Assembly: GCA_964528025.1 (NCBI GenBank)
Contig: CAZGOZ010000001.1
Span: 4,398 to 68,397 of the forward strand
Source: an uncultured Planctomycetia bacterium
Lineage (GTDB): Bacteria > Omnitrophota > Gorgyraeia > Tantalellales > Tantalellaceae
Direction of reading: 5' to 3'
Length of the DNA: 64,000 bases
The position numbers and the translations under genes were made by a program. Position 1 is the first letter of the stretch; each line of letters begins with the position of its first letter. Positions 2,999-64,000 of the stretch are shown one piece after another. The notes beneath the pieces were generated by a model. That model saw nothing but the letters and a program-made list of their open reading frames with translations, did not search any database and was not told the DNA's origin.

Positions 2999-3289
2999 TT
3001 ATTCCCTTTTCTTTCTCTTAAAATACCATTATCCAAATTTCACCCGTTCTACCGATGCTCTATACTAACAGATTACACCCCCCACTGTCCACCAAAATAA
3101 CCATCTTTTTTCCCCTAACTTCCAGCCCCGGGCCGGAAAAGAGTGGCTAGACCAATAAAAAATGGGCTTGTGAGCATTAGACGCTGGCTGAGAGCATTGG
3201 AACAGTTGAGCAGTAGACCGCAATGGATCCCCGCTTTCGCGGGGATGACACATAAATCTACTATCCAGTGACCAGTGACATACTACTGC

Positions 3290-3949: not shown

Positions 3950-4107
3950 GATGGTTTGTCCTGTTTCGTTTCGGGCGGGCACAAGGCCCGCCCCTACGAA
4001 TTTTATGACCTTACTTCCGTTCCGGAAAAGAAAAAGAGATTGGGTCACTCCGGAAAGCTTTTCGAAATTCCAACAACCCACAAACACACTGATTTTTACC
4101 GCGAAAG

Positions 4108-9319: not shown

Positions 9320-9327
9320 TTTACCGT

Positions 9328-17547: not shown

Positions 17548-17564
17548 TTTTATTTACTCCTTAT

Positions 17565-17635
17565 GTCATTCCCGCGCAAGCGGGAATCTATCTGGTCCTT
17601 TTCATTCTGGATCCCCGCTTCCGCGGGGATGACAG
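17565..17635. repeat. Two family E GC-rich hairpins in the rplF-rpsH spacer
   Basis: gtcattcccgcgcaagcgggaatc and tggatccccgcttccgcggggatgaca. Same family at 3224-3250, 44786-44813 and 52378-52478. Confidence 0.7.
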
Positions 17636-42332: not shown

Positions 42333-42509
42333 CCTCCGGGCTCGTATTATTCTACCGGCTCTCGCTATCGCTCATGCCGGAAAATATTCTCGCCCTCCGG
42401 TCGGCCACCCGCATCTTCGGTTGTGCTCGTTTCCTCCTATCCTCGGAAACTTCGCTTTATTAAAGGCTCAGATGCTCCCTTCGATTCCCTCTGTATACCC
42501 GATAGATAA

Positions 42510-42548
42510 AAAAGCCGGCCATGAAATCATGGCCGGCTTTTTAATCTA
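42510..42548 (-). terminator. Intrinsic terminator after tRNA-Gly
   Basis: On the minus strand: GCCGGCCATGATTTCATGGCCGGC followed by TTTTTTATC. Confidence 0.6.
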
Positions 42549-42622
42549 TGGAGCGAGCGATGGGAATCGAACCCACGTAGGAAGCTTGGAAGGCTTCTGC
42601 ACTACCATTGTGCTACGCTCGC
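42549..42622 (-). tRNA. tRNA-Gly (anticodon TCC)
   Basis: The reverse complement GCGAGCGTAGCACAATGGTAGTGCAGAAGCCTTCCAAGCTTCCTACGTGGGTTCGATTCCCATCGCTCGCTCCA folds as a cloverleaf. Confidence 0.8.
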
Positions 42623-42641
42623 TCCGTATGAGTTTTCCGGG

Positions 42642-42959
42642 CTATCTGTTCGCCGGCTGGAAGACCACTACTGTCTTATCTGTATCTTTTCTGGAACTCG
42701 CCAGTACGATTGGCTCCTTTGATATTATGGATATCTCAATATCGTCGTTCATTCTATCCGTCGTCCGAAAAGTTGACTTGAGCATGCCATCCGCAAGAGC
42801 TACATGAGATGTTTTCTTAAAAGCCGTTTTGCCGAAAGTTTCCGCGATTTCGTTACGCACTTTGAGACACACCGACGCAACACCGACGCGGTATTTCCAT
42901 GCCGCATAAATACCTCCAACAAGAGCGATTATAACAAGCAGGATGATTATTTTTTTCAT
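42642..42959 (-). CDS. Hypothetical small membrane-anchored protein
   Basis: MKKIIILLVIIALVGGIYAAWKY forms an N-terminal TM helix; no recognisable domain. The ORF extends upstream to 43073. Confidence 0.4.
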   Translation of the reverse strand: MKKIIILLVIIALVGGIYAAWKYRVGVASVCLKVRNEIAETFGKTAFKKTSHVALADGMLKSTFRTTDRMNDDIEISIISKEPIVLASSRKDTDKTVVVFQPANR

Positions 42960-42960
42960 A

Positions 42961-43344
42961 TTATTGCTTCTCCTCTTTTTCGGATTCTTTTCTCTGAATG
43001 GCGTCCAGATAGCTGTCAACTTCTTCCAAGCTTTTGAAAACAGCATCTTTCGGCAAAAGTTTAACAATCTCAAAAACCTTATTAATCTGCGGTTTGAGGT
43101 TAGTCATTATAAAAACACCGCCCGCGACCTCAACAATTTTCCTCGCCTGAAATATTACTCCGATACCCGCGCTACTTATATAATCCAGCTTATTCATGTC
43201 AAATATCAGGGCTTTTACGGGTTTGTCCAAGAGCGGCATTACACCCTCTTTGAACATGGGATACGTGGTGGAATCCAAACGGCCTTCCGGTCTGATTAGA
43301 TAAACACCGTCTTTCTGTTTTTTTATGTCAACACTGAAACTCAT
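42961..43344 (-). CDS. STAS-domain protein (anti-sigma-factor antagonist-like)
   Basis: 127 aa; ...LDYISSAGIGVIFQARK... is a SpoIIAA-like fold signature. Confidence 0.65.
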   Translation of the reverse strand: MSFSVDIKKQKDGVYLIRPEGRLDSTTYPMFKEGVMPLLDKPVKALIFDMNKLDYISSAGIGVIFQARKIVEVAGGVFIMTNLKPQINKVFEIVKLLPKDAVFKSLEEVDSYLDAIQRKESEKEEKQ

Positions 43345-43769
43345 TTTTCTTCCCCGGGCGAGCCCGGAACGTCTTTCTTTTCGCCGGACAACACTTTTTT
43401 TATCTGTTCAAGCAGCGCTTCGCCGCGGTATGGTTTTGCCACGTACTGTTCCGCGCCGAGCTCCATCCCGTATTCTTCGTCAAACTGGCCCCCTCGTCCG
43501 CTCAGCATGAGCACGGGGATATCTTTCATCTCCTCATCTTTCTTAAGGTTTATGAGTACGTCCCGGCCGTCCATGTCGGGCATTGCGATATCCAGTATCA
43601 CAAGATCGGGTTTTTCCTGTTTAACGACCTCTAACCCTTTCTTGCCGCCGAACGCGGATATCACCTCAAAACCCCTTTGCTCCAGAAACTCCTTTATGGT
43701 ATTAACCAGTTCTTTTTCATCGTCTATTATAACTATTCTGATTTTTGCGGCACCCTCATCCATAAACAC
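43341..43769 (-). CDS. Stand-alone response-regulator receiver (CheY-like)
   Basis: IVIIDDE ... LVILDIAMPDMDG ... a receiver domain with the phospho-acceptor Asp. Confidence 0.8.
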   Translation of the reverse strand: MFMDEGAAKIRIVIIDDEKELVNTIKEFLEQRGFEVISAFGGKKGLEVVKQEKPDLVILDIAMPDMDGRDVLINLKKDEEMKDIPVLMLSGRGGQFDEEYGMELGAEQYVAKPYRGEALLEQIKKVLSGEKKDVPGSPGEEK

Positions 43770-43781
43770 TCCCCTTTTTAT

Positions 43782-44213
43782 TTAGGCTGTCCTATCAGGG
43801 CGTTTTGCCTGGTTAACCAAAAAAGTTTTCTGCCCGAAAATCTTATCGTTGGAGTAAATCCTGAATTCATATTTCCCCGGATGCGCAAACTTGAGAGCCC
43901 CGAGGTTAAAAACAAGATCATGGATCTCAAGAGGGCTGCAAATCCTAATTTCCTTGGGTATCTCCGCCCTGCCGATAACGGAATCATTCTCCAAATCAAC
44001 CAGTTCCAGGCAGAAACGATATTTTCCGTTCAGATCCGTGAGTTTTATATACACGGCAAGAAAATGATGCACGCACGGAAACTTGAAAGCCGAGATGTTC
44101 TCAAAAATTCCGATAAGACTTTTTTTGTTCGTGCCGGCTTCCGTTATAACTTTATCGCATACAAGCATCGCATTCACTACCGGTTTGGTAACACTCGCCA
44201 TTCGTTCCTCCAT
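43782..44213 (-). CDS. Hypothetical protein, no recognised domain
   Basis: 143 aa intact ORF in an operon-like arrangement with the PilZ, REC and STAS genes. Confidence 0.4.
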   Translation of the reverse strand: MEERMASVTKPVVNAMLVCDKVITEAGTNKKSLIGIFENISAFKFPCVHHFLAVYIKLTDLNGKYRFCLELVDLENDSVIGRAEIPKEIRICSPLEIHDLVFNLGALKFAHPGKYEFRIYSNDKIFGQKTFLVNQAKRPDRTA

Positions 44214-44238
44214 ATATTTTTATATAACGAAAACCGTG

Positions 44239-44646
44239 TTAAAGCGTCGGATGTTCATCCTGCTCAAGATCCGGCGACGCCCATTTGGAATAACATTCAT
44301 CAACAACTCTGATTATTCGTTCTCTGTCTTTCTTCGTAATCTCCGAAAAAATCAACGCTACGAGAAATAGATACGGCGCCCGCAGGTCCTCAACCCGTAT
44401 CACCTCTCCCACACAACTTATGGGATCTTCTTCCGGTGAAAAGTTTACTTTGAGGTCAAGCAGCGACCCGACCTCCACTTTTTTGTTGTAATAGAAAAGC
44501 GCCCCGCCGGCCCCTATATCCAAAACGGCCACCATATCCCACCCCTCAAACGCCTTCTTGCGCCCCTTATGTTCCTTGATCTGAAACCCTATAATGAAAG
44601 GTTTTTTTACCCTCTTATATTTTCGCCGCTCTTTTCCCTTAAACAT
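44239..44646 (-). CDS. PilZ-domain protein (c-di-GMP binding)
   Basis: RRKYKR (RxxxR) motif and DIGAGGA (DxSxGG) motif. The ORF extends to 44868 across a hairpin repeat; start chosen at MFKGKERRKYKR. Confidence 0.7.
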   Translation of the reverse strand: MFKGKERRKYKRVKKPFIIGFQIKEHKGRKKAFEGWDMVAVLDIGAGGALFYYNKKVEVGSLLDLKVNFSPEEDPISCVGEVIRVEDLRAPYLFLVALIFSEITKKDRERIIRVVDECYSKWASPDLEQDEHPTL

Positions 44647-44850
44647 ATCAGCATATCCCCTTTCATAAAACGAAAAACCGCATATATACAGGATAAATAC
44701 TATTATACCCGTCCGCGCCGGATATGCAAGCGTCTCCTTGCCCGCTCGTCCCGTAGCAGAACAAGAATCACCCGCCTCTCCGTCTGTCATTCCCGCGGAA
44801 ACGGGAATCCATTCGATATGAGAAATATGCAAAAAACGGCTGTTTTTCGT

Positions 44851-44905
44851 GCTCAGGGGTGTCCCCAAAAGGCATGTCCCCCGGATGGATGTCCCCCCGG
44901 ATGGA
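44851..44905 (+). repeat. rTGTCCCC direct-repeat cluster 1 (shares a 33-mer with clusters 2 and 3)
   Basis: cgtgctcaggggtgtccccaaaaggcatgtcccccggatggatgtccccccgg. Confidence 0.8.
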
Positions 44906-44918
44906 AATAGAATTCGTA

Positions 44919-44955
44919 GGGGCGAATAATTATTCGCCCGTACGTCTTTTATTTT
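44919..44955 (+). terminator. Hairpin plus conserved CTACGTCTTTTATTTT tail (family D, plus-strand orientation)
   Basis: gtaggggcgaataattattcgcccgtacgtcttttatttt. Confidence 0.45.
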
Positions 44956-45061
44956 GAATTTCCCGGGAACGGAACGCTCTGGCCAGATGAAAGAAAAAGA
45001 AAGTAAATACTTGTATTTTCTTTCTTTTCGTGATATCCTTTAGTCAAAAGGGGGCAATAAA

Positions 45062-45301
45062 ATGACTGTACAATTATCGACCAGAATAGATTCTAAGGCA
45101 AAACAGGCGTTAGATCAGCTGCACAAGAAAACCCATGTGCCTATATGCGTTCTGACCGAAAAGGCGATCTTTTTGCTCAAGGAGAAATACGAGCGCATAA
45201 GTTCGGTGGGAAAAAAGGGCGCGGTTGATGAAGTATTTATGGGCTTACTGGACCACAGCATGAAGAAACACGATGCCACATACAAAAAACTCGCCGATTG
45301 A
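45062..45301 (+). CDS. Antitoxin (Phd/RHH-like), partner of Doc
   Basis: A 79 aa ORF overlapping the Doc gene start. The N-terminal beta-strand/helix pattern MTVQLSTRIDSKAKQALDQL looks like an RHH fold. Confidence 0.6.
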   Translation: MTVQLSTRIDSKAKQALDQLHKKTHVPICVLTEKAIFLLKEKYERISSVGKKGAVDEVFMGLLDHSMKKHDATYKKLAD

Positions 45302-45704
45302 GCCGGTTAAATATCTCAGATTAGAACAAGTGCTTGCCGTTCACACTACCCTTATCGAGCGCTACGGAGGAAGGCACGGCATCCGCGATAAAGGACTTGT
45401 TGAATCCGCTGTCTTTAGACCACAAACTACGGTTTTTGGCCGGGAAGCTTACCCCGATTTTTTCGGGAAATGCGCTGTCCTGGGATATTCCCTTATCCAA
45501 AACCATCCTTTCATCGACGGCAACAAGCGAACAGGTTTTGCTGCCATGCATCTTATGCTACTTATGAACGGCTATGATCTGACTTCCTCCACCACAGAGG
45601 AAGTCAAAATGGCAGAAAAAACAGCTTCCGGAAAAATGAAGGAATCTGAAATAGCCCTCTGGCTCAAAAAACACTCCAAGAAGAAAAGACCAAAGACAAA
45701 ATAA
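45273..45704 (+). CDS. doc: Doc/Fic-family toxin
   Basis: Fic motif HPFIDGNKRTGFAAM. The N-terminus KYLRLEQVLAVHTTLIERYGG resembles P1 Doc. The ATG at 45273 overlaps the antitoxin by 29 nt, so the true start is uncertain. Confidence 0.75.
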   Translation: MPHTKNSPIEPVKYLRLEQVLAVHTTLIERYGGRHGIRDKGLVESAVFRPQTTVFGREAYPDFFGKCAVLGYSLIQNHPFIDGNKRTGFAAMHLMLLMNGYDLTSSTTEEVKMAEKTASGKMKESEIALWLKKHSKKKRPKTK

Positions 45705-45706
45705 TG

Positions 45707-45740
45707 ATTACACTCCGGGTTTGTACACTCCCGGAGTGTA
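45707..45740 (+). terminator. Hairpin after doc
   Basis: ttacactccgggtttgtacactcccggagtgtaa followed by tttctgg. Confidence 0.45.
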
Positions 45741-45769
45741 ATTTCTGGGCCTGCTCAAAAGTGTAAAGG

Positions 45770-45895
45770 ATGTCCCCGGGTTAAAGTGTAAAGCATGTTC
45801 CAGTTGCACAGTTCTAGATGTCCCCTGTTCTAGAAGGGGGCATGTCCCCAGTTCTAGAATATACAGGGGTGTCCCCAAAAGGCATGTCCCCGGTT
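45770..45895 (+). repeat. rTGTCCCC direct-repeat cluster 2 (five motif copies)
   Basis: ggatgtccccgggtt ... agatgtcccctgttctaga ... gcatgtccccagttctaga ... caggggtgtccccaaaaggcatgtccccggtt. Confidence 0.8.
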
Positions 45896-45913
45896 ATTAC
45901 ATTAGGCGGTGAG

Positions 45914-48900
45914 TTAGGCTGCGGACCTGATATTCTTTTTTATGATTCCATTCAGTATTGGGATTATATTAACATCCATTTTTCTGACGGGCAGGCGGAA
46001 CAGGAGCTCTTTGGCCAGCTGGTTAATATCCGTTGCTTTAGTCGTCCAGTCTTCTCCCGTGAGAGTCCGATAAGCGCTGAGAAGCTTATTCATATCACCG
46101 GTTTCGAGAGCCCGAAGAGCCATCATGATACCTTCAACTTGGATTATATCGCCTTCTCCATCTTTAGTGAAGGCGAGAGCTTTCATGCCTTTGGCCTGTA
46201 CCTTTTCAACAAGTTCTTTTCCAGGACAGGCAACATCAAATTGGACCTTGTAATTTTGATACTGAGATTCTATCTGCGTTTTCAATGTTTCTAATTTTTC
46301 CATAAACTCTTCCGGCTTGACTGAATCCGCCATTGAGAGTGATACTATTTTCTCGCCATATTTTTCGTCTCTCATCTCCTGCTCAAGTGTTTTAAGTATA
46401 TCCCTTTGCTGAACAGGTAGTATTGAATCTGTAACTATGTGGCAGATAATCGTCTTGTCCGGAATACTCGGGGTAAGGCTGAGGTTTTCGGTGTGTATTT
46501 TATCGGCTTTTTCTACCTCACGCGCATCGCTGGAGCATAGCAACTCTACAAGCGCCTTCGTATCTCTAAAATCGGGCCGTGTAAAGTCGGCTAAAGCCCC
46601 GAACTTCGCCGGTTCGCCTATACCCAAACCTAAAGCGCGTCTCATTGAGGTTTCTGTTTTCGCGTATTTTAAATCCTCCGGGGAGTCACCGATCATGACA
46701 ACTTGATTGCTTTTCAAGCCGTATCTCTTTTTGACGGCTTTAATAACTTCAGATTTTTTGACAGGAGACCCTATAACCCTGGAAGAAAGCGATTCGCCCT
46801 CTTTGAGCACTTTATCGCGAAGTATTTCACCTATCTCGGTCTCGCGAACCGCCACATCCAAAACGTCTTGGGTTATGCCGCTGGCGATATATATCTCAAT
46901 CCCGTTTCTTACAAGCTCTTTTATGAATTCAACTGCACCCGGTATGTACACCTTCGGCCTGCTCTGGATGTATATAATCTGCAACCCGTTGTAGGCAATA
47001 ACGAATCTCTTGGCTATATCGGGTTCGGCTTGAATGCTGTCTATCTTTTCCTGACTTAACTTGAATTTGTTCGCCAGTTTTACGGCTAACTCCGAAAGGT
47101 CTTCGTCACTATGCCCGTTCTGTTTCGCTATACCAATCAACATATGCATCTGCTCTATACAAGGCCTGCCGGTGGTCTCACCTACAAATTTGTAGCCCTC
47201 TTTCAAATCTTCTTCCTGAGACGCATCGTCAACAGTGCAATGTGTAATATACCACCAGTTTTTAGCCCACAGCTCTTTCTTCCAGCTCAATGTCTCAAGC
47301 ATAGTCCCATCCCAGTCAATAACAGCTGCTTTTACATCCGGTTTAATACGCGCGTTAGCGGTGGGATTTTTTGCCGGTGTCTGGGTATTCATCTTAGGGT
47401 GGACGGATAAATCCACCTGTTCTGCAAGCCCTATTTCTCTAATCGATTTTTCAGCTAAATTTTTTGCTCTTTGATTTGGGCGGAAAATTAAATCAAATCC
47501 TGTTTGCTCCGGTAAAGTTTCAGGAGCTACCCCTGTTAATAGCAACTGTTCAATTTGAGGATAAATTTCTCCAATTCTATTCAACAAATCTAGCGGACTT
47601 GATAAACCTAATTGGGCATAAGAAACTACACCCGCAAAGGGATAAGCTTCTTCGTCTGGCAATACTACTTCAGCTACAATTCTTTCCCTGGCCATGATTT
47701 TTATAGCTCTTAATGGTAATTTTGATGCCTCTAACTTTTTATAATGTAGTTCGTTTTCTTGCTTAAGGTCCTCAATTTGATCCTTTAGTGTCTCCGCGCT
47801 CATTTCTTTTCTCTTTGGGGGCTCAGGAGTGTGCAAAATGGTTTCTAGGTCAGTTATTAAAAATTCATTAAGCGCTATTTGTCTAGTTAGCGTAAATTCT
47901 ACTTCAACGTATTTAGCCGTTTCTTTTCGTACAAATTCAAGAAACTCTTCTGAAGTTGGGTCTACAATTCTAACACTTATCCTGCCTACAATAGGCTTAG
48001 TACTCATACCAATGCCATTCACATAGTCTCTAATTTCTAAATCAACTCCAGGCACAAAGTAAGCAAGTCTTCTGTGTTTGTCTAACACTTCATACACCTT
48101 AAGTTCTTGCTCCCTTGTCAAGTCTCCGTACAAATGGAAATTATTAGGCTCTTCCTTTATAAGCAATTCTTCTTGTACTATGCCGCTTTCATCAATGTAA
48201 AAGTTATCAATCAACTCTTCCCATAGCACACTCACATCAGATACTATTTCACTAAAATCCTCTTTTTTGACTGGAAGACTATCTCCTTTTGTACGAATTT
48301 TAAGTGAGAGCAAAGCCTCTTGAGAATCATTTACTTGACGTACCAGTCTGAAATTATAGCTACCTGTAACCCTCATCGGGGATTCTAACATCCAACCGCT
48401 TGTGTGATGATGAAAGTCGTAATAAATAAAACTGGTTGAGAATGGAGACTCTCTTTTTTCTGATTCACTTTTAAAACGCCTGGCTAGATTCACATAACGA
48501 TGCGTGACTTCCTGTAGTGTTGCCCCAAGTACATCAACATCGGAGATAGCTGCTATACCTAAAAGCTCTTTCTCTAAATCTCTGCTTCTTTGCTCAACAT
48601 CTTCATCAGGTTGACTATCAAAACTCAAATCCATATAAGCATCTGAGCTAACTTCTCCCCTAAAGGGTTTATGTTGAATAGAATACACATCCTCTAACCA
48701 ACTGGTATCCAGAGCAAGTATCGTAGCTTGTTTCTCGTCTTGCACGTCGGCTTCGGTTTCTGGCTTTGTTTGTTGTAAATGCTTTCTTAAGAGTGTTTCA
48801 TATTGTCCGGAAACTACATCATAGAATTGGTTTATCCACTTTTCGCTTTTTTCATCCAATTCATGATTCTTCTCTTTTCCCGTTGTTTCAATAAATTCTA

Positions 48901-50059
48901 TTGCTTCTAAATAATTAATTTTTTTTCTGTCGTCACTAATCAAGTTTAGATATATGCTTGCGACAATTAATCGCATTAGAACTGTTCTGTAACGTTTCCT
49001 ATCTGTTTCCTCACGAAAATAAGTTTTATTTAATCTTTGGGCAGCATTGTTAATAAGCGAAAATGTTATTGGCAAGACATTTCCGAGCGGTAATTGCGGC
49101 TCAACGAAGTCTTCACCCCAAAGAACGAAATTTCGGAATAATAATTGCGCTCTTGTACTATTAATAACACTGGCAACATCCCCGATATTTTTTCTTTCAG
49201 GGCCATTATAGAAATCTCCCCTTACAAGATTGTCTTCGCCTATAACGGTAATATCTATACCGCTTATGCCATTTCTTCCTTCACCACAATCTTTTGGGAA
49301 TATTTTCGAAAAGTTTTCAATTTCTATATGCTCCATGGACTCACATGCATTGCCTTTAACGATAATATCCAGATCAATATCATTGGGATTATCGCTCCAG
49401 AGAAAGCTTCCAAAAACTGAAATGTTTTTTATTTCGTACTGCGGATAGTGTTCTTTAAAATAATCTATAATAGATGCTGTTCTGTTCGCCAAAACGTGAC
49501 AGGAAGACAATATCTCTTCTTGTTTTTTTTGCGGATTACCTGCATAAAAGAGATTACGTTGTAGTCTTTTTCGCAACAAATCTCTGTGCTCAGCTTCAAC
49601 TTGCTCACCTGAAAAAACTTTTGCGGGAAATTCAAACTTAAAATCTATTGGCGTGGGGAATTCAACTTGCTGCTTGTTCCCGTGTAAATCATCTAAATGC
49701 TCTTTTATTACCCTTTTCACTCCACTCTGGCTCAAGCCCATCTTCTTAACTCTATCTCTCAATAGGTTGAAATATATTATTTCAGCCTCACTTTGAAAGT
49801 TGTCCCGAAAAATACTTCTGGCATCTTCATTTAGCTCGGTGATAACGACATTACCGTTTGTTGTCTTTATGTCAACTACTGGATTGAAGAGAGATTGTAT
49901 TGCCAAAGCTGAAGTAATTGGACCCTGAAGGGAGTAACCCTGCCCGGTCATAGAAAAGGCAAGAATCACTATTATTGATATTACCCGCAATAGATAATTA
50001 TGATTATGGACGTACTTACACATGTGGGTTAGCATAACAAAAGCGTTGTTAATAAGCAA
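45914..50059 (-). CDS. Giant 1381 aa protein with an N-terminal TM/signal anchor, a minimal nucleotidyltransferase (Pol-beta superfamily) motif and a HAD-superfamily hydrolase domain
   Basis: N-terminus LLRVISIIVILAFSMTGQG. The NTase signature is VFGSFLWSDNPNDIDLDIIV (GS-x11-DxD). HAD motifs: I VIDWDGTML, II IASGIT, K KKSEVIKAVKK, IV MIGDSPED. The region and its codon usage are AT-rich. Confidence 0.7.
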   Translation of the reverse strand: MLINNAFVMLTHMCKYVHNHNYLLRVISIIVILAFSMTGQGYSLQGPITSALAIQSLFNPVVDIKTTNGNVVITELNEDARSIFRDNFQSEAEIIYFNLLRDRVKKMGLSQSGVKRVIKEHLDDLHGNKQQVEFPTPIDFKFEFPAKVFSGEQVEAEHRDLLRKRLQRNLFYAGNPQKKQEEILSSCHVLANRTASIIDYFKEHYPQYEIKNISVFGSFLWSDNPNDIDLDIIVKGNACESMEHIEIENFSKIFPKDCGEGRNGISGIDITVIGEDNLVRGDFYNGPERKNIGDVASVINSTRAQLLFRNFVLWGEDFVEPQLPLGNVLPITFSLINNAAQRLNKTYFREETDRKRYRTVLMRLIVASIYLNLISDDRKKINYLEAIEFIETTGKEKNHELDEKSEKWINQFYDVVSGQYETLLRKHLQQTKPETEADVQDEKQATILALDTSWLEDVYSIQHKPFRGEVSSDAYMDLSFDSQPDEDVEQRSRDLEKELLGIAAISDVDVLGATLQEVTHRYVNLARRFKSESEKRESPFSTSFIYYDFHHHTSGWMLESPMRVTGSYNFRLVRQVNDSQEALLSLKIRTKGDSLPVKKEDFSEIVSDVSVLWEELIDNFYIDESGIVQEELLIKEEPNNFHLYGDLTREQELKVYEVLDKHRRLAYFVPGVDLEIRDYVNGIGMSTKPIVGRISVRIVDPTSEEFLEFVRKETAKYVEVEFTLTRQIALNEFLITDLETILHTPEPPKRKEMSAETLKDQIEDLKQENELHYKKLEASKLPLRAIKIMARERIVAEVVLPDEEAYPFAGVVSYAQLGLSSPLDLLNRIGEIYPQIEQLLLTGVAPETLPEQTGFDLIFRPNQRAKNLAEKSIREIGLAEQVDLSVHPKMNTQTPAKNPTANARIKPDVKAAVIDWDGTMLETLSWKKELWAKNWWYITHCTVDDASQEEDLKEGYKFVGETTGRPCIEQMHMLIGIAKQNGHSDEDLSELAVKLANKFKLSQEKIDSIQAEPDIAKRFVIAYNGLQIIYIQSRPKVYIPGAVEFIKELVRNGIEIYIASGITQDVLDVAVRETEIGEILRDKVLKEGESLSSRVIGSPVKKSEVIKAVKKRYGLKSNQVVMIGDSPEDLKYAKTETSMRRALGLGIGEPAKFGALADFTRPDFRDTKALVELLCSSDAREVEKADKIHTENLSLTPSIPDKTIICHIVTDSILPVQQRDILKTLEQEMRDEKYGEKIVSLSMADSVKPEEFMEKLETLKTQIESQYQNYKVQFDVACPGKELVEKVQAKGMKALAFTKDGEGDIIQVEGIMMALRALETGDMNKLLSAYRTLTGEDWTTKATDINQLAKELLFRLPVRKMDVNIIPILNGIIKKNIRSAA

Positions 50060-50104
50060 CTTTTGAGGTTATAACACGGGTCCTCCGATGAGGGTTCGGA
50101 AAAA

Positions 50105-50215
50105 CGGGGTATTCCCGTGCTCAGGGGTGTCCCCAAAAGGCATGTCCCCGGTTATGGGTTTTCCAGGGGTGTCCCCAAAAGACATGTCCCCGGTTCTGGA
50201 TGTCCCCGTCCCGGA
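50105..50215 (+). repeat. rTGTCCCC direct-repeat cluster 3 (five to six copies) directly upstream of the giant gene start
   Basis: cccgtgctcaggggtgtccccaaaaggcatgtccccggttatgggttttccaggggtgtccccaaaagacatgtccccggttctggatgtccccgtcc. Confidence 0.8.
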
Positions 50216-50528
50216 CCGGACGGTCCCGGGCCGGAAATGGGGTTCCCGCCCTACCGCCGCGCGGGATCGCTTGGGGCTGTTGTTAAGAGGTAAATGTTTG
50301 TTTTGGATGTGGGGTGTTAGTATGGGGTTACTTCGATTTTCGGGGGCTGACCCCGTTTGTGTGATTTGCTTCTCTTGTATCATATGGTATAATTTAAGTA
50401 GAATACTGTGAGGGCTTATTTAGTTTGACATATGTTTTTTTCGTGGTATACTTACCGCACTTTCTTGAAAAGGCTTGGGTAATAATTTGAGATGTCAATC
50501 CCAGAATTGACTATCGCTATCAAAATTA

Positions 50529-51377
50529 TCAACCTGAGCCTTTCTCTTTTTTAGGCACCTCTTTGGATTGTTTTACATACCTGATATTAAACTTATTCCT
50601 TATTTTGACCGAAACTTTTTTAGAAGCTTCTACCCAAGTATTCACAGTTAAATCTCTTATGCCTATTTTTTTAACTAAATACTCTCTAACCAAATTTTTA
50701 TTCATAGACCCTTTGTTTTTACTTCCTTTTATTGGAAATAGATTGTTTAAAATACATCCTTGCAATAAATCGCAAACACCCATAAGCTCATATCCCTCGG
50801 CTCCAGAAACCACATCTTGTATGTGTCTTATGCGAGGTCTTGTTAAACCTTTAGAATATACATTATCTGGTATACAAAAATTTTGTTTCAAGGTATTCAT
50901 GAATTGTTTTGGATCACATCTAGACATTTTATCCAAAAAAAGTACTGCATCGTCGACTTCTCTCATTTCTTTGTTTAATAAATGCTCAGCAAGAGTACGA
51001 TAAACTCTCTGTCTTTTTATTTTATCTGGCTCTGTTGCGTCACCATATCTATGCAATTCAAGCGAATTATCCGTTCGGATTGCTACAGCAGCAAAGTAGC
51101 TATCGCTATCGATAAATTTATCAATTACTTTTTCATATACTTCTCTTGTTTTTTTTGTATAACACCAATTATATTTAATCTCTCGAAGTCGACCATTTGG
51201 TAAAATAAAATGCTCTTTCATTAGTAATTTTTTAATTTCATTAAAAAACTTTTTATGGTGGGGATTGAATAATCCTCCTAAAATAAGCCATGTATGGTTA
51301 TGGTCATATGTTTCATCTAAATATATTTTCACAATACTGCTCCCAACTTTCGCTTTATCTTTTGTGGTTTCCAGCAA
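50529..51377 (-). CDS. Hypothetical protein, possibly DUF3800-like
   Basis: 282 aa. The N-terminal KIYLDETYDHNH resembles the YxDE[ST] start of DUF3800 proteins, recalled from memory only. AT-rich. Confidence 0.3.
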   Translation of the reverse strand: MLETTKDKAKVGSSIVKIYLDETYDHNHTWLILGGLFNPHHKKFFNEIKKLLMKEHFILPNGRLREIKYNWCYTKKTREVYEKVIDKFIDSDSYFAAVAIRTDNSLELHRYGDATEPDKIKRQRVYRTLAEHLLNKEMREVDDAVLFLDKMSRCDPKQFMNTLKQNFCIPDNVYSKGLTRPRIRHIQDVVSGAEGYELMGVCDLLQGCILNNLFPIKGSKNKGSMNKNLVREYLVKKIGIRDLTVNTWVEASKKVSVKIRNKFNIRYVKQSKEVPKKEKGSG

Positions 51378-51436
51378 AACGTGTTAGACGCTTTGCCGAA
51401 ATCACGGGTCTCCCTCAGAACCTCAGCAACGCAATC

Positions 51437-51763
51437 TTAAGCCACAAGGTTTGTCTTAAGCTTTTTTCTTTTAAGCTTCCCCGTTTCCATGTGTTCATCG
51501 ATACACTCATCACATTTTGATAATCGATCAAATGCTTCTGCAATATTTTCCGCTCTGTGAGATTTTATTAATCGTACATAATCGTCATGAAACGACTCCC
51601 CCATTTTTCTCAAAAGCTCCCTGTATACATCAAGGATTCTCCCTGTCATTTGAGATAAAGAGCGATCATCACTTTCTGCTAATCGTTCCAGAAACTTTTT
51701 GCTTTCTTTCGTCAGCCTAATCTGTATTCTTTCATCTTTTTTCATAAGCTTCATTGTACGCAT
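51437..51763 (-). CDS. Ribbon-helix-helix (CopG/ParD-like) DNA-binding protein
   Basis: IQIRLTKESKKFLERLAESDDRSLSQMTGRILDVY shows a beta-strand then two helices; 108 aa. Sits upstream of the DUF3800-like gene. Confidence 0.5.
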   Translation of the reverse strand: MRTMKLMKKDERIQIRLTKESKKFLERLAESDDRSLSQMTGRILDVYRELLRKMGESFHDDYVRLIKSHRAENIAEAFDRLSKCDECIDEHMETGKLKRKKLKTNLVA

Positions 51764-51802
51764 TTGTCACCATTTGTCAACCCCCTTCCAACCCGCCTCG
51801 AA

Positions 51803-51959
51803 GAATCCCCCGGTGCCTGCCCTTGCGGGGCTTAAATTTCCCGAACGGGCAGGGTTCCCGAAGGCCGAAAGGCCTGAGGGGGAGCGAGGGAAATTTCAGA
51901 GGTCAATTTCCTCGCTGGGGAAATTGACCGTCCCCGCGGGGGCAGGTGCCGGGGGATTC
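51803..51959. other. Long inverted repeat (about 30 bp arms) enclosing nested sub-hairpins; a candidate structured RNA or regulatory element
   Basis: gaatcccccggtgcctgcccttgcggggc ... gtccccgcgggggcaggtgccgggggattc, with inner hairpins aggccgaaaggcct and gagcgagggaaatt..aatttcctcgctg. Confidence 0.4.
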
Positions 51960-51961
51960 TC

Positions 51962-52150
51962 GTGAGGGGACAACACAAAGGGCGGGGGAACCCCGCCCCT
52001 ACGTCTTTTATTTTTGTTTTTACGTTCCCGATTCAATCGTGGGCGGACAACACAAAGGGCGGGTTTGGAACCCGCCCCTACGTCTTTTATTTTTACATTT
52101 AATCGTGGCCGGACAACAAAAAGGGCGGGCACGAGGCCCGCCCTTAGGGA
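51962..52150 (+). repeat. Three tandem family D units (about 65-75 bp each), each a GGGCGGG-loop-CCCGCCC hairpin plus a CTACGTCTTTTATTTTT tail
   Basis: ggacaacacaaagggcgggggaaccccgcccctacgtcttttattttt / ggacaacacaaagggcgggtttggaacccgcccctacgtcttttattttt / ggacaacaaaaagggcgggcacgaggcccgccc. Confidence 0.7.
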
Positions 52151-52223
52151 TTTTACTTTATTGGTCCCTCGGCGCGTTCGCTTCGCTCACTTGCTCGGGA
52201 TCAATTTTTGCGGAGCAAAAATT

Positions 52224-52307
52224 GGTGGGGAGAGAAGGATTCGAACCTTCGAAGGCAGAGCCGACAGATTTACAGTCTGTTGCGTTTAACCACTTCGCTA
52301 TCTCCCC
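52224..52307 (-). tRNA. tRNA-Tyr (anticodon GTA), long variable arm
   Basis: The reverse complement GGGGAGATAGCGAAGTGGTTAAACGCAACAGACTGTAAATCTGTCGGCTCTGCCTTCGAAGGTTCGAATCCTTCTCTCCCCACCA folds as a type II tRNA. Confidence 0.8.
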
Positions 52308-52377
52308 ACGAGAGAGGGATTCCGGAATGTATTGTAGAAAACCGGAATGCGTTTGTAAAGAACTATTAGTATTAGCA

Positions 52378-52478
52378 ATGGATTCCCGCTTTCGCGGGAA
52401 TGACATCTTAACAATGGATTCCCGCTTTCGCGGGGATGACATCTTAACAATGGATCCCCGCTTCCGCGGGGATGACAT
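52378..52478. repeat. Three tandem copies of a 36 bp unit containing a family E GC hairpin
   Basis: acaatggattcccgctttcgcggggatgacatctta x3, with no unique spacers. Confidence 0.8.
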
Positions 52479-52485
52479 TTGAAAC

Positions 52486-52560
52486 TGGAGCCGGCGGAGG
52501 GATTCGAACCCCCGACCAGAGGTTTACAAAACCCCTGCTCTACCCCTGAGCTACGCCGGC
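52486..52560 (-). tRNA. tRNA-Thr (anticodon TGT)
   Basis: The reverse complement has acceptor GCCGGCG, anticodon loop TTTGTAA, T-loop TTCGAAT and encoded CCA. The anticodon call depends on the stem register. Confidence 0.65.
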
Positions 52561-52600
52561 TCGCTCTGCACCATCACCCCTTCGGGGTTAGGTGCTGGGG

Positions 52601-53461
52601 TTATAAACCTGCTTTATCAAACGCTTCGGGCATGTATGTTAGAATGTCGGAAGCGGTCATGCAAAACTGTCCTTTTTTATCGGCGGCTATGTCGCCGGCC
52701 AGGCCGTGGATGTATACTGCGGCGACTGTTGCGCTGTAAGCGTCTATACTCTGCCCTATGAACGATACGATCATTCCGGTCAGAACGTCGCCCGTGCCGC
52801 CCGAGGCCATGCCGGAATTACCGGTCTTGTTCACATAAACTTTTCCTTGCGGATCCGCAACGACGGTTTCGTGGCCTTTAAGGCATACGATTGCGCCGGT
52901 TAGCTCGGCAACGCTACGCGCGATGCTTTCCCGGCTCGCCTGCACTTCATCCGCGACCTTACCCGTCAGGCGCGCCATCTCACCGGGATGCGGCGTAATG
53001 ACTGTTTGCGCCTGTCTGGCTGTTAAGGGACTAAGATCACCCTCAAGGGCATTTATTCCGTCGGCGTCCAGAACAACAGGCATCGTCAGTTCTTCAAGCA
53101 GTTCTCTGACGAGTTTCTGCGTTTCATTATCGGTTCCCAGGCCGGGGCCTATCGCAACGGCATTACATTTCTTCGCGAAATGCAGTATCTCTTTTTTCGC
53201 CTTGAGCGCCAAAGATAAATTCTTCGTCTCCGGAAGAGGCAGAGTCATGACTTCGGTCAGCTTGGTCTCCATTATTGAGTTCAATAATCGCGGGATACCG
53301 TTCGTGACAAGACCGCTGCCCGAGATGAGCGCGCCCTGTGACGACAGAAACGCCGCGCCCGTCATCCCCCGCGAACCCGCGAGAATTAATACCCTGCCGT
53401 AATCACCCTTGTGAGAATCTTTTTTGCGACCGGAAATCTTCTTTATATGTTCATGCACCAT
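52601..53461 (-). CDS. nnrD: ADP-dependent NAD(P)H-hydrate dehydratase (YjeF C-terminal domain)
   Basis: KGDYGRVLILAGSRGMTGAAFL. Confidence 0.8.
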   Translation of the reverse strand: MVHEHIKKISGRKKDSHKGDYGRVLILAGSRGMTGAAFLSSQGALISGSGLVTNGIPRLLNSIMETKLTEVMTLPLPETKNLSLALKAKKEILHFAKKCNAVAIGPGLGTDNETQKLVRELLEELTMPVVLDADGINALEGDLSPLTARQAQTVITPHPGEMARLTGKVADEVQASRESIARSVAELTGAIVCLKGHETVVADPQGKVYVNKTGNSGMASGGTGDVLTGMIVSFIGQSIDAYSATVAAVYIHGLAGDIAADKKGQFCMTASDILTYMPEAFDKAGL

Positions 53462-60367: not shown

Positions 60368-60530
60368 AATTGGTAGGTCACCCTAAAGGGTGACCTACGA
60401 CTTTTCTCTTTGCTGGTAGGTCACCCTAAAGGGTGACCTACGACTTTTCTCTTTGCTGGTAGGTCACCCTAAAGGGTGACCTACGGCTTTTCTCTTTGCT
60501 GGTAGGTCACCCTAAAGGGTGACCTACTCT
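60368..60530. repeat. Four tandem 43 bp units, each with a perfect 26 bp palindrome
   Basis: gctggtaggtcaccctaaagggtgacctacgacttttctcttt x4. The spacers are identical, so this is not a CRISPR array. Confidence 0.85.
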
Positions 60531-61468: not shown

Positions 61469-61501
61469 ATTATCGCCCAGTAGGGGCGGGGTTCCCCCGC
61501 C

Positions 61502-61780
61502 CTACGCCTCGCTTTTCACCGTATCTCCCATTATCTTCTTCACCACGATAAACAAGCACAAAATGATTGAGACACTGTTCGCCAGTATAAGCGGAAATTC
61601 TCTTATAAGAAGACCGTAAACCAGCCATAGCGCAATGCCCAGAGACAGCACCAGATACATACAGAGCGATATGTCTCTCACGTGTCCCGTCTTAAGAATC
61701 TTTATTATCTGCGGAATAAACGACACTGATGTGCAAATGCCGGCGATAATACCGATGGTTCCGATATGAAAATCATTCAT
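61502..61780 (-). CDS. SemiSWEET / PQ-loop sugar transporter
   Basis: 92 aa with three TM segments and a PQ motif (IPQIIKILKTG). Confidence 0.7.
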   Translation of the reverse strand: MNDFHIGTIGIIAGICTSVSFIPQIIKILKTGHVRDISLCMYLVLSLGIALWLVYGLLIREFPLILANSVSIILCLFIVVKKIMGDTVKSEA

Positions 61781-63809
61781 TTTTCCCTTCCTCTAATGTT
61801 TTCCGAAGTTCCGCAATCTGATCACGAAAGAATATTGCCTTTTCAAACTGCAGATTCCTCGCCGCCTTTTCCATTTCTCCTTCCAACTCGGACATGACTT
61901 CAAGAATATCATATTCTGCGTCACTTTCACCGGTAACTTCTTGCGTTATCTCTCGCGCAAGTTTATGGGTTTCTATTCCACCTTTTATCTCATTCCTGAT
62001 CGTTGCCGGCGTGATAGAGTTTTCCTCATTGAACACAAGCTGTTTTTTTCTGCGCGCATCCGTGATATCAATGGTTTTTCTCATTGAATCGGTTATACGA
62101 TCGGCATAGAGCAGCACCGTGCCGTTCACGTTTCTCGCTGCCCTGCCGGCCACCTGTATGAGCGCCGTCCAACTGCGCAGAAAACCCTCTTTATCGGCGT
62201 CAAGAACCGCCACGAGAGATACCTCCGGTATATCCAGTCCTTCCCGGAGCAGGTTAATTCCGACTAAACAATCAAATTTCCCCCGTCTTAGATCTCTCAA
62301 TATCTCCACCCGGTCAAGCGCTTTTATCTCCGAATGAAGATACCTAACCCTCAGCTTCAACTCCGAAAGAAATCGCGCAAGTTCCTCTGCCATTCTCTTT
62401 GTCAGCGTGGTCACGAGAGACCTCTCGCCCTTGGCGGCGCGTTTGCGAATCTCCTCCGCCAGATCATAGACCTGACCTTCCGTCGGCCGCACCGTAATCG
62501 GCGGATCAAGCAATCCCGTCGGCCGTATAATCTGTTCCGCCATGACCGGGCTTCTTGAAATCTCATACTCACTCGGCGTGGCCGAAACAAAGAGAATCTG
62601 TTTTGACTTTTCCATGAATTCCTCAAACTTCAGAGGCCTGTTGTCCAGAGCGGAAGGCAGACGAAACCCGTAATCCACGAGTGTCTGTTTGCGCGCGCGA
62701 TCCCCGTTATACATCGCGCGCAGCTGAGGAAGGGCCACATGGGATTCGTCTATGATAACCAGAAAATCATCGCCAAAATAATCAAGCAGACACCACGGAC
62801 GGCTTCCGGGGGGCCTGGCCGAAATATGCCGCGAATAGTTCTCAATACCGTTACAATATCCCAACTCGCTCAGCATATCCAGATCATACCTCGTACGCGT
62901 CCCAAGCCGCTGAGCCTCCAGAAACTTCTCTTCTTTCTTAAGTTCGTGAAGACGTTCTTCCAGCTCCGAGGATATCGTTTTTACGGCTTTTTTTATCCTG
63001 TCCGGGCCGGTAACGAAATGCTTTGCGGGATAAACAGCTACTTTATCAAGAGCAGCAAGTATATCCCCCGATACCGGATGTATCTCGGATATACGCGTAA
63101 CCACATCATCGGAAAATTCTATCCGGAAAGCCGTTTGTTTATATGCCGGAAACACCTCAACCGTCCCACCGCGGACCCGGAACATGCTGCGCTGAAGATC
63201 CGTATCGTTGCGCGTATACTGAATCGCTACCAGTTTTTCAAGAAACTCCCTTCTGGTCATCCGTTGGGACAGTTCCACCCGCGCCAGCATTGTTGAATAG
63301 TCCTCCGGCGAACCGAGACCATAAATGCATGAAACACTTGCCACCACCAGAACATCGCTTCGTGAAAAAAGAGAACTCGTCGTTGAAAGCCGCAGGCGGT
63401 CAATGTCCTCGTTGATTGAAGAGTCCTTCTCTATATACACGTCGGTCTGTGGAACATATGCCTCCGGCTGATAATAATCGTAGTAACTAACAAAATACTC
63501 AACGGCATTCCGCGGAAAAAACGCCTTGAATTCCGAGTAAAGCTGCGCCGCGAGCGTCTTATTATGAGAAATAACCAGAGTGGGCCTGTTAAGCTGTTCC
63601 ACGATGTTGCCCATCGTGAAGGTCTTACCGCTGCCAGTAACTCCCTGAAGGGTCTGAAAAGGGTTCTTTTTTCGGATAGAAGCGGTAATCTTCTTGATTG
63701 CATCCGGCTGATCCCCCGCCGGTTTCAAGTTGGTTATAAGTTGGAATTTTTCCATTGGATTAAAATTAAAAGACGCAGGGCGGGGAAACCCCGCCCCTAC
63801 ATGTTTCAT
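61773..63809 (-). CDS. uvrB: Excinuclease ABC subunit B
   Basis: GVTGSGKTF Walker A; 678 aa. Confidence 0.9.
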   Translation of the reverse strand: MKHVGAGFPRPASFNFNPMEKFQLITNLKPAGDQPDAIKKITASIRKKNPFQTLQGVTGSGKTFTMGNIVEQLNRPTLVISHNKTLAAQLYSEFKAFFPRNAVEYFVSYYDYYQPEAYVPQTDVYIEKDSSINEDIDRLRLSTTSSLFSRSDVLVVASVSCIYGLGSPEDYSTMLARVELSQRMTRREFLEKLVAIQYTRNDTDLQRSMFRVRGGTVEVFPAYKQTAFRIEFSDDVVTRISEIHPVSGDILAALDKVAVYPAKHFVTGPDRIKKAVKTISSELEERLHELKKEEKFLEAQRLGTRTRYDLDMLSELGYCNGIENYSRHISARPPGSRPWCLLDYFGDDFLVIIDESHVALPQLRAMYNGDRARKQTLVDYGFRLPSALDNRPLKFEEFMEKSKQILFVSATPSEYEISRSPVMAEQIIRPTGLLDPPITVRPTEGQVYDLAEEIRKRAAKGERSLVTTLTKRMAEELARFLSELKLRVRYLHSEIKALDRVEILRDLRRGKFDCLVGINLLREGLDIPEVSLVAVLDADKEGFLRSWTALIQVAGRAARNVNGTVLLYADRITDSMRKTIDITDARRKKQLVFNEENSITPATIRNEIKGGIETHKLAREITQEVTGESDAEYDILEVMSELEGEMEKAARNLQFEKAIFFRDQIAELRKTLEEGKNE

Positions 63810-63840
63810 CCTTCGTTTCGGGCGGGCACAAGGCCCGCCC
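63785..63840 (+). terminator. Two tandem GGGCGGG hairpins (family D) immediately after the nadC stop
   Basis: gggcggggaaaccccgcccctac ... cgtttcgggcgggcacaaggcccgcccctac. The second is a 31 bp exact copy of 3968-3998. Confidence 0.5.
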
Positions 63841-64000
63841 CTACATTATTTCTAAACTGAAATCAAGCGGTGATATGGTGGAAGTCAGGGCACCGATTGA
63901 GATGATATCAACGCCTGTTTTCGCGTAACTCTTGATGTTTTTATTTGTAATGCCTCCCGAGGCCTCGTATAGCACTTTTTTTGCGAGACCCATCTTTTGC
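63841..64000 (-). CDS. nadC: Nicotinate-nucleotide pyrophosphorylase (C-terminal fragment; gene continues off window)
   Basis: The hand-translated end is ...GLAKKVLYEASGGITNKNIKSYAKTGVDIISIGALTSTISPLDFSLEIM with stop TAG at 63843-63841. Not in the ORF track. Confidence 0.6.
   Translation of the reverse strand, partial: QKMGLAKKVLYEASGGITNKNIKSYAKTGVDIISIGALTSTISPLDFSLEIM

Follow-up and report, generated by a model that had tools for sequence, protein, structure and literature searches.

On balance we favor the interpretation that the three tandem hairpin modules between the tRNA-Tyr gene and an RHH gene of this Omnitrophota genome, which are built on REP sequences, form the terminator of tRNA-Tyr on the minus strand, and that the 157-nt palindrome next to them is a unique local element outside the RHH-DUF3800 transcript. 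The element of interest is the 460-nt spacer between these two genes, which lies in a 64-kb stretch of DNA analyzed in its entirety (the window). The type of element, a GTAG-tagged REP, is already known. The original prediction had tentatively assigned the spacer to a small plus-strand noncoding RNA ending in a triple terminator or, alternatively, to a leader or operator region serving the RHH-DUF3800 operon on the minus strand.

An insertion hotspot between tRNA-Tyr and tRNA-Gly

The minus strand carries a conserved block of genes (uvrB, ftsH, folP, pdxJ, acpS, and nnrD) followed by two tRNA genes, and the order NnrD, tRNA-Thr, tRNA-Tyr, tRNA-Gly is kept in relatives. The tRNA genes and the small elements close to them are:

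52486-52560, minus strand: tRNA-Thr(TGT)
52372-52479, strand not given: three tandem 36-nt units (AATGGATYCCCGCTTYCGCGGGRATGACA) of a second repeat family, between tRNA-Thr and tRNA-Tyr
52223-52307, minus strand: tRNA-Tyr(GTA), with its own promoter-like site (TTTACA-17-TACAAT) at 52359-52331
52200-52222, minus strand: small A/U-rich hairpin AAUUUUUGC-UCC-GCAAAAAUU, directly 3' of tRNA-Tyr
42549-42622: tRNA-Gly, left of the island described below, with tRNA-Thr(GGT), tuf, and ribosomal protein operons as neighbors

Dispersed copies of the 36-nt-unit family were found at 3222-3250, 17564-17592, 17606-17634, and 44785-44813. The gap between tRNA-Tyr and tRNA-Gly is often 10-75 nt in related Omnitrophota (L024, L028, L031, and L032), whereas here it measures 9.6 kb and is partly low in G+C (32-39% versus ~50%). 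The genes of this island encode:

one RHH and one DUF3800 protein
a 1381-aa protein that contains nucleotidyltransferase and HAD domains
an RHH_3-Fic pair
PilZ, DUF6941, response regulator, and STAS proteins

The Tyr/Gly spacer is a hotspot for insertions in this lineage, and its cargo varies among relatives: L115 has an IS481-family transposase there, and L048 an excisionase-like gene. No integrase or transposase was found in the 9.6-kb island, nor did the island contain a partial repeat of tRNA-Tyr. In the relative L115, nested palindromes follow both tRNAs. In our reading the REP cluster sits where the conserved tRNA-Thr/tRNA-Tyr genes meet a 9.6-kb, low-GC island that was probably acquired horizontally.

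The region 50400-52650 was recovered in four contigs from three samples (two from JGI and one from ENA). Three of these were 100% identical and the fourth had a single mismatch to the window, at 51404, which is outside the element. A shorter Logan contig spans 50487-51795 at 100% identity and reaches the edge of the element. Because the sequence recurs in four contigs from three samples, the element is not an assembly artefact.

Tandem modules and the GTAG-tagged REP family

The spacer contains three tandem 63-nt modules at spacings of 79 and 66 nt (chance expectation 0.02):

51962-52022, minus strand: module 1 (tandem copy at 51952-52014), the last met on the minus strand, with the REP at 51980-52002 (GTAGGGGCGGGGTTCCCCCGCCC) and then TTTGTGTTGTCC
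52031-52093, minus strand: module 2, with the REP at 52057-52081 (GTAGGGGCGGGTTCCAAACCCGCCC) and then TTTGTGTTGTCC
52097-52159, minus strand: module 3, the first after tRNA-Tyr, with a hairpin at 52123-52143, a degenerate tag (CTAA), and the best U-tract (TTTTTGTTGTCC)

Along the minus strand each module runs AAAATAAAAGAC-GTAG-hairpin-TTTGTGTTGTCC, with TTTTTGTTGTCC taking the place of TTTGTGTTGTCC in module 3. The three tandem copies of GGGCGGG-loop-CCCGCCC reported earlier are present, but they are not peculiar to this spot. The hairpin motif without regard to its tag, GGGCGGG-N3-9-CCCGCCC, occurs seven times in the window versus 0.01 expected, and the tagged motif GTAGGGGCGGG-N3-9-CCCGCCC occurs six times versus 0.00 expected. 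The plus-strand tail ascribed to all three copies is exact in copies 1 and 2 (CTACGTCTTTTATTTTT), but copy 3 has CTTAGGGATTTTACTTT instead. The REP hairpins have a 7-8 bp stem, GGGCGGG(G), and a loop of 3-7 nt, for a total of 19-25 nt. GTAG lies directly against the stem in modules 1 and 2 and in four other copies, and five of these six tags, those of modules 1 and 2 included, are on the minus (gene) strand. Copies elsewhere in the window are:

3973-3997: intergenic, with mutL on one side and an endonuclease III-like (HhH-GPD) gene on the other
61480-61502: 11 nt upstream of an epimerase start (61468), overlapping the 3' end of a called PQ-loop gene
63778-63800 and 63820-63844: flanking the annotated uvrB start (63809), with 63778-63800 inside the called N-terminus

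All of the REP copies are in spacers or at the ends of annotated ORFs, and the adjacent 10 kb contains two or three more. The family is also polymorphic: a REP cluster between valS and the next gene varies between assemblies that are 99.9% identical, being an inverted dimer in L238 and a head-to-tail dimer in L239. The tagged core was found in at least 120 IMG/VR stretches, some of which have 3-7 copies and inverted dimers, and what the modules and the IMG/VR copies have in common is a core of 24-35 nt only. At the loci of the closest relatives the REP family is absent, which fits the published species-specific REP families. No RAYT or Y1 transposase was found among the 19 window ORFs scanned against Pfam. 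By sequence criteria, the module hairpin belongs to a dispersed, polymorphic family of GTAG-tagged REPs, and the modules are head-to-tail tandem duplicates of one unit having the core GTAG-GGGCGGG-loop-CCCGCCC on the minus strand.

Omnitrophota are commonly placed with the PVC superphylum. REPs measure 20-40 bp, have stems of 6-13 bp, carry GTAG at one end, and occur mostly downstream of ORFs; members with this tag are known from the PVC superphylum, certain REP families are confined to one species, and REP clusters include singletons reiterated in tandem together with flanking DNA (PMC3733652). The copies described here resemble GTAG-tagged REPs and BIMEs (PMC3733652, PMC2817692) in their GC-rich 7-8 bp stem, the abutting GTAG, and the dispersed intergenic copies, which are mostly in the orientation of the flanking gene, as well as in tandem reiteration with flanking DNA and turnover between near-identical strains. 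They differ in that head-to-tail arrays, which are present here, have been described as rare and in that the unit here has a U-rich 3' tail. The published survey of GTAG-tagged REPs did not include Omnitrophota.

The U-rich tail is limited to the tandem modules and one IMG/VR contig, L122, and the REP copies at 3973 and 63820 have no U-tract on either strand. Since these other copies lack a U-tract, the REP hairpin alone is not a terminator, and the tail belongs to the module unit rather than to the REP core.

Strand of the putative terminators

The modules had been predicted to be intrinsic terminators of the plus strand, but it is the minus strand that fits. In a terminator scan the minus strand yielded a call for each of the three hairpins (10-11 pairs; tails TTTGTTGTCC or TGTGTTGTCC), whereas among the modules the plus strand yielded a single weak 5-pair stem. 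Each hairpin directly abuts TTTGTGTTGT or TTTTTGTTGT on the minus strand, 78-243 nt downstream of tRNA-Tyr, with the first stem (that of module 3) 78 nt past the tRNA-Tyr end at 52223. On the plus strand the sequence CTACGTC, consisting of the tag CTAC plus GTC, places 7 nt between stem and T-run, where an intrinsic terminator would have 0-2 nt. Hence a stem, an abutting U-tract, and a co-oriented transcription unit, the criteria for an intrinsic terminator, occur together on the minus strand and not on the plus strand. The A-rich and T-rich flanks give the modules a bidirectional look, a point against the minus-strand reading. The plus-strand T-run is the conserved A-rich 5' flank of the repeat unit read backwards, parted from the stem by the REP tag.

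As for an upstream plus-strand unit, no sigma70-like promoter was found on that strand within ~1.1 kb, the nearest promoter-like site being at 50641-50669. It had been stated that no plus-strand protein gene lies upstream, and this is correct, in that the nearest is the Fic gene, which ends at 45704. The relatives L048 and L113 have one canonical terminator ~55 nt after tRNA-Tyr, and in both the TTTACA ... TACAAT pair can be read at the same place as here.

Because of their tails, the spacing of the tag, the position of tRNA-Tyr, and the single terminator of the relatives, we read the modules as a triplicated tRNA-Tyr terminator. Termination of tRNA-Tyr on the minus strand is their most likely role, and module 3 is the most canonical predicted intrinsic terminator among the three. 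The modules would end tRNA-Tyr transcripts by Rho-independent termination, two of the copies acting as back-up, and would keep read-through from reaching the RHH-DUF3800 cassette, which is under a promoter of its own. They resemble the intrinsic terminators found after tRNA operons in that their GC-rich minus-strand stems have 10-11 pairs and run directly into the U-tract. They are unlike such terminators in being triplicated, in being carried on a mobile repeat, and in the interrupted U-tracts of the second and third copies.

Structure of the 157-nt palindrome

The 157-bp inverted-repeat region enclosing hairpins that had been described between the modules and the RHH gene is real, with 29-nt arms and two inner hairpins. 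Its parts are:

51796-51967, given on the plus strand since it folds better there: composite palindrome, outer stem of 29 + 5 pairs
51832-51899: hairpin A, inside the outer stem, with the tip GGCC-GAAA-GGCC
51901-51929: hairpin B, inside the outer stem

The arms (51802-51830 and 51932-51960) are 86% Watson-Crick complementary, and all four arm mismatches are G.U on the plus strand. Five additional pairs (51796-51800 with 51963-51967) lengthen the outer stem to 34 pairs. The predicted RNA fold has a free energy of -120 kcal/mol on the plus strand (z -9.4 versus shuffles) and -98.4 kcal/mol on the minus strand (z -6.8), and none of 200 shuffles folded as well on either strand. DNA folding parameters ranked the two strands as did the RNA parameters. 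In a scan of the whole window the palindrome had the top stability of any 160-nt segment (z -7.9). The palindrome is real, extremely stable, and unique in the window.

The difference between the strands has a specific basis. Each of the seven wobble pairs is a G.U on the plus strand but an A.C on the minus strand, the GAAA tetraloop at the tip of hairpin A exists only on the plus strand, and the plus-strand fold is 22 kcal/mol the more stable. The strand-biased wobble pairs and the GAAA loop would not be predicted by a purely DNA-level role or by a minus-strand role. The sequences that flank the palindrome, CCTCG and CGTGAGG, are complementary and lengthen it rather than being direct repeats, and no target-site duplication, the mark of a MITE, was found around it.

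The palindrome sits between the last terminator module and the RHH promoter and appears to be locus-specific. We infer that it probably arose locally by inverted duplication within a repeat-rich spacer. It probably has no function of its own and would at most form a very stable hairpin in any transcript that crosses it.

Searches for relatives of the palindrome

Searching of Rfam, which had been suggested as a check for a known RNA, gave no match over the palindrome. At the gathering threshold the entire window gave only tRNAs, and at E <= 10 the regions 51600-52700 and 51760-52030 gave only noise. A match to the DUF3800-XI model (10.6 bits, E = 5.5) sits on a REP hairpin and is noise; the palindrome itself matched none of the models DUF3800-I to XI.

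No second copy of the palindrome was found in ~74 kb of this genome, made up of the window plus an extra 10 kb. A low-copy family of the 157-nt element may exist elsewhere in the genome, of which ~74 kb were examined. Orthologous loci were located by means of NnrD in 80 genome and 3 metagenome sequences (related loci totaling ~1.3 Mb), and none gave a BLAST or covariance-model match. The closest of these relatives have an NnrD 74% identical to that encoded here, and no NnrD homologue was found between 74% and 100% identity. Absence of the outer stem from relatives had been named in advance as evidence against an RNA, and the stem was found in none of them, as far as can be tested with a nearest flanking protein of 74% identity. 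None of the five DUF3800 homologue loci compared contains a homologue of the palindrome, the four other independent ones (53-67% identity) included, and phage and plasmid collections gave no meaningful match.

A metagenome scan with GAATCCCCCGG-N120-150-CCGGGGGATTC gave 14 unrelated chance matches, mostly in coding sequence; as the collection lacked the source contig, this is a weak negative. Scans of viral contigs with the arm and with hairpin B gave either nothing or one match, in a contig whose first ORF seems to be adapter-like. The four stop-free translated frames of the palindrome had no match at E <= 1 among 5.8 billion predicted proteins.

Several other identities were considered and rejected. 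A mosaic of the window's other repeat motifs was set aside: AATTTCCCG(GG)AACGG is shared by the palindrome and 44957-44972, but local alignments to ten other repeat-rich spacers scored no better than shuffled controls. A retron noncoding RNA was rejected in that the neighboring ORFs have no RT domain and the plus-strand downstream neighbors are REPs and antisense tRNAs. Integron attC sites and 6S, SRP, and Y RNAs were likewise rejected given no integrase, no RYYYAAC/GTTRRRY cores, and no Rfam match.

The RHH-DUF3800 operon and its 3' flank

The sites relevant to transcription of the operon are:

51780-51753, minus strand: RHH-DUF3800 promoter-like site, TTGACA-16-TACAAT (11/12)
51761-51779: direct repeat TGACAAATG x2 (10 nt), overlapping the -35 hexamer of the RHH promoter
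50425-50452, plus strand: promoter-like site TTGACA-16-TGgTATACT (11/12)

The palindrome is outside the RHH-DUF3800 transcript because the promoter lies between the palindrome and the gene. Transcription of RHH is predicted to start at or near the ATG at 51745, which would give a leaderless mRNA. RHH proteins (CopG/Arc/MetJ family) are autoregulators that bind repeats, and the direct repeat over the -35 hexamer seems a better candidate operator than does the palindrome. Neither the RHH nor the DUF3800 protein matched the PADLOC defense-system models.

DUF3800 proteins have a predicted RNase H-like fold and are partners of type VII retrons and of some Cas12 and Cas13 systems (PMC7736814, PMC10910872, 2026 preprint). 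Next to DUF3800 genes, 11 structured RNA motifs unrelated to one another have been reported; they occur on either strand and to either side of the gene, several have 3' terminators, and no function is known for any of them (PMC5737381). These published motifs raise the prior for a noncoding RNA, although the tests done here were not in its favor. The element resembles the DUF3800 RNA motifs of Weinberg et al. 2017 (PMC5737381) in being structured, near a DUF3800 gene, on the opposite strand, and followed by a hairpin and a T-run. It is unlike them in that the palindrome matches no Rfam model, is a singleton without covariation, is not conserved beside homologues, and is separated from DUF3800 by the RHH gene and that gene's promoter.

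Homology among the four other DUF3800 loci is confined to the gene plus ~65 nt of 3' flank, and these loci have neither an RHH gene nor a palindrome. A ~52-nt hairpin is located immediately 3' of the DUF3800 stop codon (about 50468-50520, minus strand) and is kept in all five independent loci. Compensatory changes were seen in 6 of its 21 pairs, two pairs are G.U at every locus on the mRNA-sense strand, and none of 500 shuffles reached its covariation score. It is this 3' hairpin, not the palindrome, that is the noncoding element conserved with this DUF3800 subfamily. On the far side of the hairpin, each of the loci contains a promoter-like site oriented back toward the DUF3800 gene; the scores are strong in the window (11/12), L101 (12/12), and L105 (10/12) and near chance in L108 and L111 (9/12 each). 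A plus-strand transcript from 50425-50452 that reaches the palindrome and REP hairpins, 1.5 kb away, is possible but unsupported.

Alternative explanations

The 157-nt element could instead be a structured plus-strand RNA. It might be an sRNA in its own right, or it might form the highly structured 3' end of a long antisense RNA beginning at 50425-50452, crossing DUF3800 and RHH, and ending at bidirectional REP hairpins; it would then be a further, lineage-specific DUF3800-associated RNA. We consider this unlikely, although several properties speak for it. The bias of the wobble pairs has a two-sided probability of ~0.016 under symmetric decay of a DNA palindrome, and it is accompanied by the GAAA tetraloop and the more stable plus-strand fold (-120 versus -98 kcal/mol). 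A hairpin plus T-run starts 12 nt past the structure, the promoter-like site at 50425-50452 has counterparts downstream of all four other DUF3800 homologues, and there is the precedent of 11 unrelated RNA motifs near DUF3800 genes (PMC5737381). However, the T-run lies 7 nt off its stem, no promoter is seen within the ~1.1 kb upstream, the 9/12 promoter matches are near chance level, and the DUF3800 homologues, like Rfam, offer no homologue, their conserved element being the 3' hairpin. Moreover, functional sRNAs seldom contain a near-perfect duplex of 29-34 bp, and such a duplex would be a substrate of RNase III. The small plus-strand RNA with a triple terminator of the original prediction thus retains the plus-favored fold and the DUF3800 precedent, but has against it the dispersal of the REPs, the minus-strand fit, and the want of a nearby promoter. 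It is quite unlikely that the palindrome is a new structured plus-strand RNA of the RHH-DUF3800 cassette, for example a cis-antisense 3' domain that ends at co-opted REP terminators; if it were, the palindrome would be a twelfth, Omnitrophota-specific DUF3800-associated RNA.

A role at the level of DNA, as a recombination or mobility site (an att-like island boundary) or as a low-copy MITE, REPIN, or TIR element, strikes us as rather improbable. Such a role would be in keeping with its position bordering a low-GC insertion between the usually adjacent tRNA-Tyr and tRNA-Gly genes, with the different insertions in the same spacer of L115 and L048, and with the nested palindromes after both tRNAs of L115. 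The long near-perfect arms with self-complementary tracts recall the TIR repeats around RAYT-like genes (PMC3733652), and REP inverted dimers of similar architecture are present in the strain variant L238 and in L122. Indeed, the palindrome resembles REPIN, MITE, and long-TIR repeats (Correia, ERIC, and the TIRs of PMC3733652) in its length of ~150 nt, its ~30-nt near-perfect arms, its intergenic position, and its folding into one long hairpin. It differs from them in being single-copy in ~74 kb, in having no target-site duplication, and in having arms unrelated to the REPs of this genome. Also against a DNA-level role are the lack of an integrase or transposase and of a partial tRNA-Tyr repeat in the island, the lack of spurious-ORF copies in the 5.8 billion proteins, and the strand bias of the wobble pairs, which it does not predict. 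That the palindrome serves the RHH-DUF3800 operon as its leader or operator is very improbable. It lies within 22 nt upstream of the RHH -35 hexamer, and the autoregulation typical of RHH proteins would allow for an operator there. A leader must be part of the mRNA, however, and the palindrome is upstream of a promoter whose predicted transcript is leaderless or nearly so; moreover, the TGACAAATG pair is the more typical RHH operator and other DUF3800 homologues manage without either RHH gene or palindrome. A tRNA-Tyr terminator assembled from REP-based modules, beside a palindrome of local origin, is the explanation that we retain.

Implications

The results have corrective value in that a hairpin and T-run read on the wrong strand mimicked the triple terminator of an orphan RNA. 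They also document GTAG-tagged REPs in the genome of one uncultivated member of the Omnitrophota, where two or more repeat families are present, the repeats differ among strains of near-identical sequence, and REPs appear to be used as terminators. Detection of a plus-strand RNA would bear on the role of the RNAs found next to DUF3800 genes. The hairpin 3' of DUF3800, together with its convergent promoter-like site, is the more promising lead on DUF3800-associated RNAs.

A conserved hairpin 3' of DUF3800

The stop codon of the window's DUF3800 gene is immediately followed by about 65 nt of non-coding sequence, a block that is retained at all five independent homologue loci, that is, the window and four others (L101, L105, L108 and L111).

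Positions of the block 3' of DUF3800
Window 50465-50529, minus strand: 3' block
L101 963-1042: 3' block
L105 ~3441-3510: 3' block
L108 ~5815-5890: 3' block
L111 ~1944-2015: 3' block

Across the five loci 37 columns of the block are invariant, whereas the identity of the DUF3800 proteins is only 53-67%. The predicted fold is a hairpin of 21 pairs, six of which show compensatory changes among the five loci, and two G.U pairs are invariant on the mRNA-sense strand. No match for the block was found in Rfam. We consider it a candidate for a new DUF3800-associated RNA motif.

Promoter-like sites directed into the DUF3800 gene

Each of the five loci has, 65-155 nt past the DUF3800 stop codon, a sigma70-like promoter site that is directed into the gene. 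Agreement with the promoter consensus ranges from complete (L101) to weak (L108 and L111).

Convergent promoter-like sites beyond DUF3800
Window 50425-50452, plus strand: TTGACA-16-TGgTATACT, 11/12
L101 1144-1117, minus strand: 12/12
L105 3534-3506, minus strand: 10/12
L108 5919-5891, minus strand: 9/12, weak
L111 2046-2018, minus strand: 9/12, weak

These sites may give rise to a convergent antisense transcript.

A separate structured stretch was seen farther downstream at L111 (2290-2540, plus strand; the same locus as L110 6177-6426). It consists of about 220 nt of highly structured non-coding sequence (z = -9.3) with five hairpins, of which one has a GAAA loop, and is located 350-600 nt downstream of the DUF3800 homologue and immediately upstream of radC. 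This stretch was also without a match in Rfam.

The tRNA cluster and its insertions

The genes encoding tRNA-Thr, tRNA-Tyr, tRNA-Gly, tRNA-Thr and tuf form a conserved cluster, which in the window is split between tRNA-Tyr and tRNA-Gly by a partly low-GC insertion of 9.6 kb (42623-52222) carrying cassettes that resemble toxin-antitoxin and defence systems. In relatives, too, this spacer is occupied: by an IS481-family transposase in L115, by an excisionase-like gene in L048 and by inserts of 1-2 kb in L025 and L064. In L115, the NnrD protein of which is 73% identical, a palindrome TTAAGGGGGAACC...GGTTCCCCCTTAA follows both tRNA-Thr and tRNA-Tyr (8950-9110 and 9293-9400), and one copy has about 65 nt nested within its loop, an analogous example of palindrome nesting in tRNA spacers. 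An inverted repeat of 45 nt (window 42480-42571) extends across the 3' end of tRNA-Gly; in it the tRNA T-arm and acceptor sequence recur as a partial inverted copy, located beyond a terminator-like hairpin.

Palindromic repeats and their turnover

Several other repeats were found in the window.

Repeat families in the window
3222-3250: second palindromic family, consensus AATGGATYCCCGCTTYCGCGGGRATGACA
17564-17592: second family
17606-17634: second family
44785-44813: second family
52372-52479: second family
44856-44883, plus strand: third motif, GGGGTGTCCCCAAAAGGCATGTCCCCGG
45866-45893, plus strand: third motif
50124-50151, plus strand: third motif
50166-50193, plus strand: third motif
45768 and 45840: third motif, shorter cores

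The second family comprises three tandem 36-nt units between tRNA-Thr and tRNA-Tyr, from which the gene caller produced a spurious 51-aa ORF, an inverted pair between rpsH and rplF within the ribosomal operon, and two more single copies. The third motif is confined to spacers between cassettes of the insertion, with every copy on the plus strand. The tail CGCCCnTACGTCTTTTATTTT of modules 1 and 2 in the tandem REP array beside tRNA-Tyr is also found on a 25-bp hairpin at 44905-44954 (arms AAATAGAATTCGTAGGGGCGAATAA / TTATTCGCCCGTACGTCTTTTATTT). This hairpin lies between the divergently transcribed PilZ and RHH_3-Fic genes, a position that offers nothing to terminate. Two minus-strand genes are separated by an array of 3.7 copies of a 43-nt hairpin unit, TGGTAGGTCACCCTAAAGGGTGACCTACGACTTTTCTCTTTGC, with 99% identity between copies (60371-60527) and with the T-run on the plus strand; this array differs by one unit between L238 and L239 (near 13283-13440), two assemblies of the same population.

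Although L238 and L239 are 99.9% identical, their REP content is unequal just past the window's right end, in the spacer that separates valS from a pseudouridine synthase gene (L238 8270-8345 versus L239 8297-8349). The REPs of L238 form an inverted GTAG...CTAC dimer that includes the variant arm GGGCAGG/CCTGCCC, whereas in L239 two REPs are arranged head-to-tail, evidence of recent REP turnover.
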